Sequence record: PQ227709 | Reading direction: 5' to 3' (one strand) | Length of the DNA stretch: 40,175 nucleotides | Origin: Escherichia phage 536_P3 | In this document: piece after piece, positions 1,100 to 40,175 of the stretch | How the letters are laid out: each line of letters starts with the position of its first letter | Position numbering within the stretch: the first letter of the stretch is position 1 | The notes under the pieces: generated by a model | What the model saw: only the letters and a program-made list of their open reading frames with translations | Databases searched by the model: none | Told to the model about the DNA's origin: nothing | Made by a program: the position numbers and the translations under genes

Positions 1100-1558
1100 A
1101 TGATTTTCACTAAAGAGCCTGCTAACGTCTTCTATGTACTGGTGTCAGCTTTCCGTTCAAACCTTGATGATGAGGTTAACATGAGTCGCCACCGCCACAT
1201 GGTTAGCACTTTACGTGCCGCACCGGGTATTTATGGCTCCGTTGAGTCAACCGATTTGACCGGGTGCTATCGTGAGGCAATCGCAAGCGCACCGACTGAG
1301 GAAAAAACGGTTCGTGTACGCTGCAAGGACAAGGCGCAGGCACTCAATGTTGCACGCTTAGCTTGCAATGAGTGGGAGCAAGATTGCGTACTGGTATACA
1401 AATCACAGACTCACACGGCTGGTCTGGTGTACGCTAAAGGTATCGACGGGTATAAGGCTGAACGTCTGCCGGGTAGCTTCCAAGAGGTTCCTAAAGGCGC
1501 ACCGCTGCAAGGCTGCTTTACGATTGACGAGTTCGGTCGCCGCTGGCAGGTGGCCTAA
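1100..1558 (+). CDS. 0.3: S-adenosyl-L-methionine hydrolase/lyase (SAMase), anti-restriction gene 0.3 of the T3 type
   Basis: 152-aa ORF, ATG with GAGG RBS; sequence MIFTKEPANVFYVLVSAF...FGRRWQV matches my recollection of T3 SAMase; first gene after the early promoters. Confidence 0.9.
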   Translation: MIFTKEPANVFYVLVSAFRSNLDDEVNMSRHRHMVSTLRAAPGIYGSVESTDLTGCYREAIASAPTEEKTVRVRCKDKAQALNVARLACNEWEQDCVLVYKSQTHTAGLVYAKGIDGYKAERLPGSFQEVPKGAPLQGCFTIDEFGRRWQVA

Positions 1559-6740: not shown

Positions 6741-6776
6741 CTCAAGGTCATCAAAGCGGGTGGCCTTTGTGATTAA
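6741..6776 (+). promoter_or_regulatory. RNase III processing site R1.1
   Basis: ctcaaggtcatcaaagcgggtggcctttgtgattaa. Confidence 0.7.
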
Positions 6777-6809
6777 CTTTCAATACACATCAACATGAGG
6801 TAAGATACT

Positions 6810-14566: not shown

Positions 14567-14610
14567 TCAAGGTCGCCCAAGGGTGGCCTTTATGATTATC
14601 ATTTAGCACG
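14567..14610 (+). promoter_or_regulatory. RNase III processing site upstream of gene 5
   Basis: taaactcaaggtcgcccaagggtggcctttatgattatcattta. Confidence 0.7.
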
Positions 14611-14628
14611 AAACCAAAGGAGGGCATT

Positions 14629-33300: not shown

Positions 33301-34299
33301 CTCCTAAACGGAACATCAAACTACATTCTTGATGCTGCCCGTCAGGGTGTTCTTGGGGATGTGGCTGGAGCGGCCCTTGCTGGGAAAGCCTCTAAGTTCG
33401 GTAAGGCAAACTACCTTAAGTCTGCCTCTATCAGCCCTGAGCAGTGGAATGGAATCAAGCAGTTGTTCAGAGACTATGCGACTCGTGGAGAAGACGGTAA
33501 GTTCACCATTCGTGACAAACAGGCTTTCGCTAACGACCCTCGGTCAATGGACTTGTGGCGGCTGGCTGACAAGGTGGCAGATGAGACTATACTGCGCCCT
33601 CACAAGGTTTCCTCACAGGACTCCAAAGCGTTCGGTGCAGGGGTGAAGATGGTGATGCAGTTTAAGAACTTCGTCATCAAGTCCCTTAACTCCCGGTTCG
33701 TCCGTAGCTTCTACGAGGCAACGAAGAACAACCGTGCGTTAGACCAAGCGTTGACTCATATCATCTCTTTGGGTCTAGCTGGTGGTTACTACGTTGCGCA
33801 GGCGCACCTTAAGGCCGCAAGCCTACAGGAGCACAAACGTAAGGAGTACCTTAAGAACGCCCTTGACCCTAAGATGATTGCTCATGCATCAATCTCTCGT
33901 AGTTCACACTTAGGCTCGCCATTGAGTATCTACGACATGTTCGCTGGGATGGTTGGTAGCGATACCTATAAGTACACCCGCTCTACGGTACTCCCTAAAG
34001 AGTCCGAGAAGCGTGACCCCAACAAGGCGGTGACAGGTAGACAGGTGGCTTCAACTATCGCGGGTGCAGTTGGTGAGCAGGTTCCGGGTTTAGGTTTTGT
34101 TGGCTCTGTAGGTGCAACAGCTATTAACGCCGCTTCCCTACTGTCTTCTCCAAACAAGGCTACCGCTCTGGAGTTCCGTACAGGACTCTTCAATACCTCT
34201 CGTGAGTTAATTCCTAATGACCCGCTCTCGCAGCAACTCATTATGAAAATCTACGAGGCTAACGGTATTCGCATCAAGGAGACGCCGAAGAAACAATAA
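30337..34299 (+). CDS. 16: Internal virion protein D with N-terminal lytic transglycosylase domain
   Basis: 1320 aa; N-terminal ...GPKGLMQFTKGTATALGL...AALAYNQGEG is an SLT-like motif as in T7 gp16. Confidence 0.92.
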   Translation: MSYDKNKPSEFDGLFQKAADNHGVSYDLLRKLAFNESSFNPKAKSPTGPKGLMQFTKGTATALGLKVTDADDDDRYNPELAVDAAARHLSDLIRKYDGDELKAALAYNQGEGRNGAPQIQAYDKGDWASISEEGRNYMRNLMDVANSPRKGDLEAFGGITPKAKGIPSGDAFAGIGKKQTVGTDLPESTGFKVEGKEQQAPNVPYAKDFWEKTGTTLDEFNSRSTFFGIGDATSAELHNSVLGVAFRAARSDDGFDLFKDTITPTRWNSHTWTPEELERIRKEVKNPSYINVVTGGSPENLDALIKMANDNYEMDARSADAGVGAKLTAGIVGAGVDPLSYVPLVGVAGKGLKVANKAFIVGTQSAGLAVASEGIRTSIAGGEAHYADAALGGLMFGAGMSAISDAIAAGIRRSRGTEVVNDFAPMAHRLEARETALNTGGEDLTRMPSENRVFDREHAGVEYSPLETEPGAIVLPQGQILSDTNPLNPQTLSEFEAVNPERAARGISLGGFTEIGLKTLRSENPTVRAIASDLVRSPTGMESGTSGKFGATASDIKERLHANNQRTYNQLYDAVRAAMKDPEFSTGGATMSRKEIRQEIYKRAALAIERPELQANLTKGERNVMNILKQHFDLKREIMENPSIFGNTKAVSIFPGSRHKGTYVPNVYDRAIKIEMVNRYGNDGLQRAIAESWLTSYRARPEVKARVDEYLMELNGLKSVQEVTPEMVQKHAMDKAYGISHTDQFSASSVIEDNIEGLVGIENNNFLEARNMFDSDMAVTLPDGNTFSVNDLRTYDMAEILPAYDRRVDGDVAIMGGSGKTTKDLKDEIMALDKQSEGNGTLKGEVEALKDTVKILTGRARRNPEGAWGTALRSVNDLTFFAKNAYMGAQNVTEIAGMLAKGNVSAITHGIPMINDWVNRGKPLRASEIKELHGMVFGKELDQLIRPGREDHVRRLRESTDTSAAVANVVGTIRFGTQELAARSPWTMLLNGTSNYILDAARQGVLGDVAGAALAGKASKFGKANYLKSASISPEQWNGIKQLFRDYATRGEDGKFTIRDKQAFANDPRSMDLWRLADKVADETILRPHKVSSQDSKAFGAGVKMVMQFKNFVIKSLNSRFVRSFYEATKNNRALDQALTHIISLGLAGGYYVAQAHLKAASLQEHKRKEYLKNALDPKMIAHASISRSSHLGSPLSIYDMFAGMVGSDTYKYTRSTVLPKESEKRDPNKAVTGRQVASTIAGAVGEQVPGLGFVGSVGATAINAASLLSSPNKATALEFRTGLFNTSRELIPNDPLSQQLIMKIYEANGIRIKETPKKQ

Positions 34300-34319
34300 A
34301 CCCTCACTAAAGGGAGAGA
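34296..34319 (+). promoter_or_regulatory. T3-type phage promoter (phi17)
   Basis: ataaaccctcactaaagggagaga. Confidence 0.75.
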
Positions 34320-34372
34320 GGTCACATTCTGGCCTCTTCTCTCTCTTAATGCTAATTTACAAAGGAGGTCAC

Positions 34373-36058
34373 ATGGCTACAACTATTAAGACCGTGATGA
34401 CTTACCCGCTGGATGGCTCCACTACGGACTTCAATATTCCGTTTGAGTATCTGGCGCGTAAGTTCGTCAGAGTGACCCTTATCGGTGTTGACCGAAAGGA
34501 ACTCATCTTGAATCAAGACTATCGTTTTGCAACTAAGACCACAATCTCCACAACGAGAGCATTGGGGCCAGCGGACGGTTATAACCTTATCGAGATTCGT
34601 CGGTATACCTCAGCTACTGAACGTCTGGTTGACTTTACGGATGGCTCAATCCTCCGTGCGTATGACCTGAACATCTCGCAGGTGCAGACCCTCCACGTTG
34701 CTGAGGAAGCTCGTGACCTTACCGCTGATACGATTGGCGTTAACAACGATGGCGACTTGGATGCTCGTGGTCGTCGTATCGTGAACGTTGCGGACGCTAA
34801 AGACCCCGGTGATGCAATAACTTTAGGCCAAGTCCAGAAGTGGAACGAATCCGCGCTGAACTCTGCGAACCGCGCACGGGCTGAGGCCGACCGTGCAACT
34901 GCGCGTGCTTCCGAGGCTGCTACCTCTGCGGGTAACTCTGCTAGTTCTGCAAGCCTGTCCCGTGATTGGGCTATCAAGGAATCGCCGGTGGAAGGAACCT
35001 TTAAGTCTTCCCGGTCGTATGCCCTTGACTCTATGGAGTACCGGGATGCGTCCAAGAGTTCTGCTGATGCTAGTGCTGCAAGTGCTGGTGCCGCTAAGAC
35101 CTCTGAGATTAACACGAAGAACTCAGAAATCGCCGCTAAGACCTCTGAGACCAACGCGAAGACCTCTGAGACCAACGCTAAGGCTTCCGAGGAACGAGCC
35201 ATTGAGGAAGCAAATAAGCTGGAGAACATGAACGATTTGGCTGGTGCAATCAAAGAGGTTCTCAAGCCAGAAGGTGCTACTTCGGGCAAGGTTGTGTGGA
35301 AATATGATATTGATAGTAAAGTCCTCCGCGCCTACAACGGTATGTCGATTGGTTGGGATTGGGACGGTACTGGTAGTCCATTCATGAATTTCTATCGTGG
35401 GAAGGACGCACCTCAAGGAACCCTTAGCGTTGACGTAGGAGAACTCAGACTGTCAAACATCGGAAGACTACGAGTACAAGCCCCACTAAACGTAGCGGGC
35501 GACTACACGCAGGACGCTGGTAGCGTATGGATTAACTCAGGAGGCTGGATTCATATGTCAAACCGAGTCCCCTCTGGTGGTAACGGTAATCGAACTCAGG
35601 GCATCTTCCTGATGAACGGAATGGGAAACAATGGTCAGCGCTCCGAGTATTTCTTGGAGGACAACGGTCAGCGTATGGCGCAACAACTCGTAGTCACCAA
35701 TGGCACTAACCAAGCGTGGTACACATTCGAGGAACACGGACTTGTCATGAACAAGAACATGCGCATTAGCTGGGGTGGTAGAACCGCCTCGTACCAAGAG
35801 AATGGTGACATCACTGGTCAGGGCATTATCTGGAGTGGCGGCTCACTGAGTGCCCATTGCAATCGCTTTCTCACTAACATCTGGATTGGTGCTGGACGTC
35901 AGCGGCACGTAGGACAACAGACTTGGGAAGGTTGGATTGACAATGGGTGCGTCATGCGTGGTATCAAGCAGATTCGTGCTGGTGGTGACTGCTTCATTGA
36001 GGAACTGTTCTTTAATGAAATGTGGAAAGGTACAGACGTAGGCCAGTGGATTATCTAA
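34373..36058 (+). CDS. 17: Tail fiber protein
   Basis: 561 aa from ATG 34373 (AAAGGAGG RBS; track ORF starts upstream at 34349); N-terminus MATTIKTVMTYPLDGSTTDFNIPFEYLARKFVRVTLIGVDRK matches the conserved T7/T3 gp17 N-domain; C-terminal half not recognised. Confidence 0.93.
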   Translation: MATTIKTVMTYPLDGSTTDFNIPFEYLARKFVRVTLIGVDRKELILNQDYRFATKTTISTTRALGPADGYNLIEIRRYTSATERLVDFTDGSILRAYDLNISQVQTLHVAEEARDLTADTIGVNNDGDLDARGRRIVNVADAKDPGDAITLGQVQKWNESALNSANRARAEADRATARASEAATSAGNSASSASLSRDWAIKESPVEGTFKSSRSYALDSMEYRDASKSSADASAASAGAAKTSEINTKNSEIAAKTSETNAKTSETNAKASEERAIEEANKLENMNDLAGAIKEVLKPEGATSGKVVWKYDIDSKVLRAYNGMSIGWDWDGTGSPFMNFYRGKDAPQGTLSVDVGELRLSNIGRLRVQAPLNVAGDYTQDAGSVWINSGGWIHMSNRVPSGGNGNRTQGIFLMNGMGNNGQRSEYFLEDNGQRMAQQLVVTNGTNQAWYTFEEHGLVMNKNMRISWGGRTASYQENGDITGQGIIWSGGSLSAHCNRFLTNIWIGAGRQRHVGQQTWEGWIDNGCVMRGIKQIRAGGDCFIEELFFNEMWKGTDVGQWII

Positions 36059-36069
36059 AGGAGGACGAT

Positions 36070-36480
36070 ATGGAAAAGATTTATGAGAACTTCAAGCAGT
36101 GCGAAGTTACCGATGAGTATCGTAAGGCCGTGGGCGCCCCTTCGGATGCCCGGTTCTTCATGGACGATGAGGGTAACGATTGGTATGACCTGATGTATAA
36201 GCTGGACAGTACCGGGAAGTATACCGTGGCATTCTACCCTGATGGCTACGTTTCCTACGCGGCTACCAAGGTGGCTGGTCATCATGGTTGCGATGGTTGC
36301 TCTGTGACGCAGGTAGACACCCTTCCGGGAGAGTTCAAGACTGGCGTCTATTGGTTCTTCAACCGCGAGACACATTCGGTGGAAGAGCGCGAGCGTCCTA
36401 CATATGAGGAACCTAAGCGCACCAAGGAAGACATTATGGCCGACCTGCTTAAACTACAGAAGGAGCTACAGGCTATGTAA
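36070..36480 (+). CDS. Hypothetical 136-aa protein between tail fiber and holin, no recognisable motif
   Basis: ATG 36070 follows AAGGAGG (36058..36064) directly after the gene 17 stop; the canonical T7 order is 17 then 17.5; MEKIYENFKQCEVTDEY...HHGCDGCSV...EDIMADLLKLQKELQAM. Confidence 0.7.
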   Translation: MEKIYENFKQCEVTDEYRKAVGAPSDARFFMDDEGNDWYDLMYKLDSTGKYTVAFYPDGYVSYAATKVAGHHGCDGCSVTQVDTLPGEFKTGVYWFFNRETHSVEERERPTYEEPKRTKEDIMADLLKLQKELQAM

Positions 36481-36520
36481 CGCCGGAGCAACTGATGACT
36501 AACACATAAGGAGAACAAGA

Positions 36521-39924: not shown

Positions 39925-40175
39925 TCTCATAGTGTAAGAACCTCAAGTACCCCCCATAGCCCTCTTAAAGCCACCTAAAGTCAGCCCTACCCCTAGGGTT
40001 TAACCTTCGGTTAACCTTGAGTGTAGCGATAGCTCACTACGGTATCTCTCCAAGTGGTCTATAGGATAGCCTAAAGTGTTGCCTAAAGTCAATACCTAAA
40101 GTGGTGGATGGCTTAAGGAGAGGCTTAAAGAGTGTCCTAGTGTACCAGTTCGATAGTACATCTCTATGTGTCCCT
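39925..40175. repeat. Right direct terminal repeat (copy of 1..251)
   Basis: Direct comparison with the first 251 nt of the window. Confidence 0.9.

Follow-up and report, generated by a model that had tools for sequence, protein, structure and literature searches.

The question raised by gene 17 of Escherichia phage 536_P3 (sequence record PQ227709) was how far its tail fiber follows those of T3 and T7, and what kind of structure makes up the remainder. The window analysed, to which all positions refer, is the whole stretch of 40,175 bp and corresponds to a complete linear T3-like (Teetrevirus) phage genome. Gene 17 (34373..36058, plus strand) encodes a fiber of 561 residues and a stop codon, and is followed by a gene for a tail fiber assembly protein (Tfa). 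In our assessment gene 17 is, with good probability, modular: a T7-type anchor and shaft would be joined to a distal end of the phage Mu type that has its own Tfa, and a block of residues 345-497, the likeliest cause of any difference in host range, would have been exchanged.

Gene 17 starts with the ATG at 34373, behind the ribosome-binding site AAGGAGG, and its stop codon is at 36056-36058; an in-frame ATG at 34349 has no ribosome-binding site of the AAGGAGG type. The product matches the tail fiber family phrog_4242 (E = 7e-157). The neighbours of the gene follow the order known from T3 and T7, with gene 16 (internal virion protein) on one side and the holin gene on the other, and gene 17 is preceded by a promoter for the phage RNA polymerase (AATAAACCCTCACTAAAGGGAGA, 34295..34317, plus strand), which we take to be of the T3 type from its consensus. 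This promoter overlaps the gene 16 stop codon, and its core, ACCCTCACTAAAGGGA, is matched exactly at 34300-34315, directly upstream of gene 17. An N-terminal tail-attachment domain (residues 1-155; 34373..34837, plus strand) was identified by Pfam (Phage_T7_tail, PF03906; E = 1.3e-58, 197.5 bits against a cut-off of 25.2). In PDB sequence searches the anchor matched T7 gp17 (7boz, E = 5.9e-83) and two chains of 164-165 residues named 'Tail fiber protein' (8e4g, E = 1e-73; 8dsp, E = 4.6e-73). Over residues 1-150 the identity is 78.0% to T3 gp17, 77.3% to T7 gp17 and 99.3% to the fiber of Klebsiella phage Kpn-11mx. Both its location, after gene 16 and behind a phage-polymerase promoter, and its N-terminal domain place the fiber in the gp17 type, as a first-pass annotation of this DNA had proposed for the first ~150 residues.

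Near-identity to the T3 fiber was not seen. BLASTP against T3 gp17 aligned residues 1-296 only (53% identity) and against T7 gp17 residues 1-327 only (50% identity), no similarity being detected past residue 296 for T3 or past residue 327 for T7; the remainder has a global identity of 17.7% to T3/T7. A pyramid and tip of the T7 type (4A0T) were not found in this comparison, and the Foldseek match of the distal fiber model to 4a0t, made on a low-confidence model, gave a template modelling (TM) score of 0.2. The statement in the first-pass annotation that the distal half is unlike T7 is thereby confirmed, and the two distal peptides quoted there (WDWDGTGSPF and GGNGNRTQGIFLMNGMGNNGQ) are present in the protein. 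The break that it implied near residue 150 is misplaced, since the shaft can be aligned with T3/T7 to about residue 296 and residues 1-344 are kept at ~96% in teetreviruses.

The module boundaries were obtained by comparison with these closer relatives. A megablast search with gene 17 returned 115 phage records, none covering more than 61% of the gene. The first ~1,033 nt are 94-97% identical to those of the Klebsiella teetreviruses mtp14, KPP-5, Kpn-11mx and VAC1, and the DNA for residues 1-344 is ~96% identical to that of fiber genes of Klebsiella, Pantoea and other enterobacterial teetreviruses. In blastn alignments with Kpn-11mx, the DNA is ~96% similar from a point upstream of the gene up to 35405, and once more from 35862 to far downstream; with mtp14 and VAC1 the similarity ends at 35403 and 35401, respectively, and is back only at 36506. 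The left breakpoint is thus common to the three comparators (35401-35405), and the right breakpoint is at 35862. Residues 151-300 are 96% identical to those of Kpn-11mx. The last stretch common to all Klebsiella-type relatives is a conserved junction of residues 301-344 (35273..35404, plus strand; ending in ...KVVWKYDIDSKVLRAYNGMSIGWDWDGTGSPFMNF), which is 100% identical in mtp14, 98% in VAC1 and 87% in Kpn-11mx. It is followed by the replaced block, residues 345-497 (35405..35863, plus strand; DNA gap 35406..35861), which has ~24% identity to the equivalent block of every relative, Kpn-11mx included. For the right 15 kb of the window Kpn-11mx is the best match (97% coverage and 95.9% identity, in two pieces), and the replaced block is the sole substantial difference from Kpn-11mx-type phages in that region. 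The earlier proposal of a mosaic fiber with a swapped tip is therefore right as to the mosaic, a T7-type anchor being combined with a distal part that is not of the T3/T7 type; the swapped piece is internal and is not the tip.

The block is rich in G, N, S and Q and is predicted to be beta-rich. A foreign base composition was considered for it and rejected (G+C content 0.522, against 0.508 for the genome). Its best local match, with 44% identity across 98 residues, is the tail fiber P0008, the N-terminus of which is not of the T7 type; two T7-like fibers (P0005 and P0006) gave further local matches of ~35%. Because the frame is intact and these similarities of 35-44% occur at the same relative position in the other fibers, the block, judged from its sequence, is a real fiber allele and no artefact. 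Searches for close relatives gave little: tblastn of the block alone against 50,697 phage records and of a 217-residue query (block plus tip domain) against 72,556 plasmids found nothing, and scans of IMG/VR, of the JGI metagenomes and of GTDB, with each species represented by one genome, gave one weak locus at most and no close relative of the block. When the last 105 residues were used as the query, the genomes had no match and the metagenomes one weak locus, and the exact fiber and Tfa sequences are absent from a collection of 15 billion proteins. Since none of the collections searched has a close relative of it, the block is, at the level of sequence, a new allele within a modular design that is already known. 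At least three unrelated types of block occur on the same tip domain, namely that of the window, that of Kpn-11mx and P0001, and that of P0002 and P0003. The pattern fits an exchange of blocks by homologous recombination, because the 153 residues are flanked on both sides by DNA of ~96% identity.

The distal end of the block runs into a conserved fiber motif, ISWGGRTASYQENGDITGQGIIWSGGSLSAHCNRF (residues 465-499; 35765..35869, plus strand), which ends in a predicted short linker helix (residues 492-499) that is present in the AlphaFold2 (AF2) model. The motif is common to the unrelated tail fibers P0008-P0011. It was also matched to residues 436-465 of T7 gp17, both as the second PDB match of a profile made from the last ~106 residues (profile A4; E = 4e-4) and by hhalign (E = 8e-4). 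The T7 linker-helix motif (DGNIQGTKWGGKWLDAYL, gp17 residues 436-465, L005) aligns with residues 470-499 of the window fiber; in T7, a pyramid domain, an alpha-helical linker as well as a tip have been described (PMC11680406). The form ENGDIxGxxWGGxLSxxL was observed as well in Mu S and in prophage-type fibers. The linker motif is thus a common junction in front of tip domains that are otherwise unrelated, and it may serve tail fibers in general as a boundary for recombination or folding.

The remaining residues, 498-561 (35864..36055, plus strand), form a C-terminal tip domain that resembles Mu S. It is 86% identical to that of Kpn-11mx over the last 64 residues, of which nine differ, and 73% identical to those of P0002 and P0003. 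A word-indexed protein search with the tip alone returned no matches, a search with the tip alignment found two proteins only, and Pfam gave no significant match for it. When residues 301-561 were scanned with HMMER against 1.84 billion representative proteins, only 11 relatives of the tip were found, the best of them at 46% identity; some of them have quite different N-termini and yet have in common the motif ISWGGRTAxYQENGDI and what follows it. One sequence, P0010, bridges the two groups, with matches to the window tip (E = 1e-11) and, in Mu S, to the final 64 residues (E = 9e-11). The top PDB match of profile A4 is protein S of the Mu tail fiber (5yvq_A, E = 2.3e-5, over residues 414-503 out of 504), and hhalign against Mu S gave a probability of 96.3% (E = 1.8e-9). 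By the match of profile A4 the fiber has a C-terminus of the Mu S/P2 H type. The distal half, which the first-pass annotation had described as unrecognised, has relatives after all, in the C-terminus of the Mu S fiber and in the linker motif held in common with T7 gp17.

The Tfa gene (136 residues; 36070..36480, plus strand) starts 12 nt past the fiber stop codon, behind the ribosome-binding site AAGGAGG at 36058-36064, and was overlooked in the earlier work. A Tfa gene likewise follows the fiber gene directly in nine related loci, which is the position of Tfa genes of the Mu/P2 type; in T3 and T7 gene 17 and the holin gene (17.5) have nothing between them, so a Tfa gene is not present there. 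Since no site for the phage promoter core occurs between gene 17 and the Tfa gene, the two probably share one transcript. The protein matches phrog_136, 'tail fiber assembly protein' (E = 7.4e-13), and is 98.5% identical to its counterpart in Kpn-11mx. No family was found for it in Pfam and NCBIfam (the latter had none for the fiber either), a PDB search with the single sequence returned noise only, and a protein search gave just four matches. A profile of ten T7-like Tfa homologues had 5yvq_B as its best PDB match (E = 0.008), and the AF2 model, made from an alignment of five sequences, is confident (mean predicted local distance difference test, pLDDT, 88.5); the TfaMu fold is present in the N-terminal domain, the one that binds the fiber in proteins of this type. 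At its C-terminal end the model has one helix only (residues 119-135), the sequence of which, RTKEDIMADLLKLQ.EL, is nearly invariant among homologues that are otherwise 30% identical. In the published plan of Tfa proteins a variable N-terminal domain binds the fiber tip and conserved C-terminal helices trimerise (PMC9608196), and the Tfa of the window fits this plan in a shortened form.

By tblastn, 49 phage records, each 32-41 kb long, contain a Tfa homologue; the phages are those of Klebsiella, Erwinia, Escherichia, Pantoea and others. The records of KPP-5, VAC1, Emp27, VR4605 and HZP2 label it 'ssDNA-binding protein' or 'putative ssDNA binding protein'; most other records have 'hypothetical protein', and some have 'tail fiber assembly protein'. 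Taken at face value, the GenBank labels of those five phages would support the view that gene 17 encodes an ordinary, self-folding fiber of the T3/T7 type and that the downstream open reading frame (ORF) is unrelated to it. We regard this as scarcely credible. An identity of Tfa as an ssDNA-binding protein was rejected on its fold match to TfaMu, because of which these labels are considered wrong.

Tip domain and Tfa were found to vary together. Seven related loci carry a Tfa gene after the fiber gene: in two of them Tfa is 98% identical to that of the window, with 84-86% identity over the last 64 residues of the fiber, and in the other five, also from T7-like phages, Tfa is ~30-34% identical and the last 64 residues just 17-28%. 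This co-variation, together with at least three unrelated blocks on the same tip, supports the view that tip domain and Tfa make one functional unit and that the preceding block is exchangeable; the tip domain is presumed to be the docking site of Tfa, for which the co-variation is indirect support. Two proteins, P0003 and P0007, have differently built N-terminal regions, which match other tail-fiber families best (phrog_13173 and phrog_25042), and carry a related tip domain, 73% identical to the last 64 residues of the window fiber in P0003 and 36% identical over 50 of them in P0007. From the occurrence of such tips on other N-termini it follows that the tip-plus-chaperone unit moves between phage lineages.

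From these elements the following assembly can be proposed. The T7-type N-terminal domain (residues 1-155) would fix the fiber trimer to the tail, and a shaft from residue 151 to about residue 296 would continue as a coiled coil that includes five heptads resembling AKTSETN. A beta-rich sub-terminal region (about residues 300-491) would then end in the motif and the short linker helix, as in T7 gp17 and many other fibers, and be followed by a 64-residue C-terminal domain of the phage Mu S type and not of the T7 type. By analogy with Mu S/U, three copies of Tfa may bind this C-terminal domain and would start correct trimerisation from the distal end; on the same analogy Tfa perhaps stays on the finished fiber. 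Relative to the Kpn-11mx group, the anchor, shaft, tip and Tfa are kept (at ~86-99% identity) and the block of residues 345-497 is a different one, and we infer that the replaced block is most likely the cause of any difference in host range.

Several points weigh against this proposal. The match to Mu S depends on profile A4, which contains the bridging sequences, and a broader tip profile (A1) gave an E-value of only 0.1. For the distal fiber AF2 gave a poor model (mean pLDDT 51.6), with values of ~56-81 for the tip domain. As to Tfa, the conserved C-terminal region of such proteins (Pfam Caudo_TAP, PF02413) was not found in the window protein or in nine homologues, the match to the PHROG profile reaches only position 133 out of 178, so that about the last 45 positions are missing, and the trimerising part would, on the model, be a single helix (residues 119-135). 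A further point concerns receptor binding: in T7, the loops that govern host range belong to the tip domain and lie below the linker helix (PMC11680406), and here the tip is the conserved part, so the replaced block may not be the receptor-binding surface.

The last point leads to a different reading, in which the block is a structural spacer, equivalent to the T7 pyramid, and the receptor is recognised by the tip, perhaps together with Tfa, and is essentially that of Kpn-11mx-type phages. This would agree with the location of the host-range regions in T7-type fibers, with the identity of tip (86%) and Tfa (98.5%) to Kpn-11mx, and with Mu, where Tfa stays on the fiber tip and reportedly contributes to receptor recognition (PMC9608196). 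Against it stand the replacement at ~24% identity between flanks of ~96%, the pattern to be expected of a region under diversifying selection, and the occurrence of at least three unrelated types of block on the same tip domain. We consider this reading rather unlikely; nine of the 64 tip residues differ too, so that this reading and the main one are not mutually exclusive. If specificity does reside in the block, the principle might be general, and we suggest as a tentative and somewhat doubtful extension that in Tfa-capped T7-like fibers the exchangeable sub-terminal block determines specificity, in place of the terminal domain that does so in T7, the tip and Tfa serve as a conserved folding nucleus, and the block of the window targets a receptor or host used by no sequenced relative.

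The relatives of the phage infect Klebsiella, and many receptor-binding proteins of Klebsiella podophages are capsule depolymerases or tailspikes, or carry at their end an intramolecular chaperone that cleaves itself off; a figure legend on the BASEL phages (PMC11990801) describes one T7-like fiber that has an intramolecular chaperone. For the distal half of gp17 such an identity appears extremely improbable. No match to pectate lyase, beta-helix or Peptidase_S74 was found in Pfam at E-values up to 1, where the N-terminal domain was the only fiber domain detected; the distal part has just ~260 residues, and a separate Tfa gene is present.

The proximal shaft (residues 151-296; 34823..35260, plus strand) retains ~28% identity to the T3/T7 shaft. 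The autocorrelation of its hydrophobic residues peaks at lag 7 along the whole shaft, also ahead of the repeat array described below, and the same is true of T7, whose proximal half-fiber has been described as a triple coiled coil (bioRxiv 10.1101/2025.10.22.683886). The shaft is thus probably a trimeric alpha-helical coiled coil; a weak match to YadA_stalk (residues 135-173) is below the Pfam cut-off. An antisense ORF of 236 residues (34579-35289, minus strand) lies wholly within gene 17, across the shaft and the repeat, and most likely represents no gene but a shadow ORF, produced by the biased sequence of the shaft.

Within the shaft the first-pass annotation had noted a 21-nt tandem repeat in frame, and this was recovered. 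Tandem Repeats Finder reported 35092..35182 (period 21, 4.3 copies, 74% matches, score 105), and the array was also picked up by find_repeats (family D3). It consists of five units of 21 nt, or seven residues (35093..35197, plus strand), which encode the in-register heptads AKTSEIN, TKNSEIA, AKTSETN, AKTSETN and AKASEER (residues 241-275). A run of five in-register xKxSExx heptads was obtained in none of 20,000 shuffles of residues 151-300 (maximum 2). Likeness at the DNA level is limited to units 1, 3 and 4, which agree at 18-20 of 21 bases; the agreement of units 2 and 5 with the others is 8-14 of 21. The further suggestion that the number of repeats could vary was not supported: all eight close relatives examined (L001-L003, L007-L010 and P0004) have five heptads at residues 241-275, with unit sequences that have drifted.

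A locus that varies in copy number by slippage, and so alters fiber length or host range, might still be read from the 20 of 21 bases at which two adjacent units agree, from T3 and T7, which have exactly one heptad fewer at this place (a single gap of seven residues), and from the more distant T7-like fibers L012, L013, L025 and L027, in which similar xKxSExN arrays have other lengths and lie elsewhere in the shaft. Such a locus is very improbable here, given the identical positions of the five heptads in all eight close relatives despite the divergence of the units, the poor agreement of units 2 and 5, and a heptad periodicity that spans the whole shaft, in T7 too. This periodicity indicates that the array reflects coiled-coil structure, and the best reading of the array is that of normal coiled-coil sequence, which over long evolutionary times has grown or shrunk by whole heptads.

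The window has direct terminal repeats of 251 bp (1-251 and 39925-40175, 100% identical), from which it follows that it is a complete T7-like genome with both ends present; the lengths listed for T3 and T7 are 231 bp and 160 bp (PMC11680406). The left 25 kb are covered to 92-96%, at ~95% identity, by the teetreviruses Pantoea F2M1C, Klebsiella Patroon, Citrobacter SH1 and Salmonella phiSG-JL2. The promoter core ACCCTCACTAAAGGGA, with up to two mismatches allowed, has 16 sites in the window, all on the plus strand, against 0.02 expected by chance; sites were recorded at 422, 10005, 18990, 21528, 22563, 27019, 34300 and 39360, among others, and variants ending in ...TAACGGGA or ...TAACAGGA are concentrated in the region of 5-14 kb. 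A perfect tandem duplication of 127 bp (827-953 and 954-1080) was observed just upstream of a gene 0.3-like ORF (1100..1558), the counterpart of which is annotated as S-adenosyl-L-methionine hydrolase in some related records. The 127-bp unit is single-copy in the ten best related phages, in which a 501-nt query spans only 374 nt. The duplication could be genuine or else an assembly artefact. The unit has a motif in common with 1713-1766, 6756-6800 and 14579-14623, which may be a candidate processing site of the RNase III type.

T7-like phages are the main chassis for the engineering of host range, and Klebsiella teetreviruses are used in therapy cocktails. The locus offers a natural and precisely bounded exchange unit, of 153 residues between a group-wide junction and a conserved tip-plus-chaperone unit. 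A swap of the block is probably possible without touching the chaperone pair; grafts of the extreme fiber end should bring the matching Tfa gene along. The 'ssDNA-binding protein' label carried by several of the Tfa homologues among the 49 phage genomes is an annotation error that should be corrected.

Among known systems, the closest are the Klebsiella and Pantoea teetreviruses (Kpn-11mx, MW296877; Emp27; VR4605; ViciousJeremy; PoeticCupcake; VSG32; Pantoea F5M1C; KPP-5), which have the same order of gene 16, gene 17, tfa and holin gene. Their last 64 fiber residues are 84-86% and their Tfa 80-99% identical to those of the window, but at residues 345-497 they carry another block, with ~24% identity and no DNA similarity. 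In the Klebsiella/Teetrevirus literature that was checked, nothing was found on this type of fiber. T3 and T7 gp17 (4A0T, 7EY9 and others) are alike in the anchor (77-78%), the shaft to about residue 296, the position of the promoter and the linker-helix motif; they differ in that their pyramid and tip have no sequence similarity to the window fiber, no chaperone gene lies between genes 17 and 17.5, and the shaft has one heptad fewer. The Mu proteins S and U (TfibMu:TfaMu, 5YVQ) are related at a sequence identity of just ~14-18%; unlike Mu S, the window fiber belongs to a podovirus and has a T7-type anchor, its Tfa has 136 residues (175 in Mu) without the conserved C-terminal region, and the window has no invertible segment. 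A similar arrangement is given, in the figure legend concerned, for the Teseptimavirus EmilieLinder (Bas103), a T7-like podophage in which a gp17-type fiber (Gp59) is followed by a separate Mu-like Tfa (Gp60), with a predicted 3:3 complex (PMC11990801, S7 Fig). That phage is of another genus, is likened here by this description, and is not among the 49 tblastn matches of the window Tfa. Because a T7-like fiber with a Mu-like Tfa is described there, the design as such is already known; the novelty lies in one allele of the variable block together with clear boundaries of its exchange.

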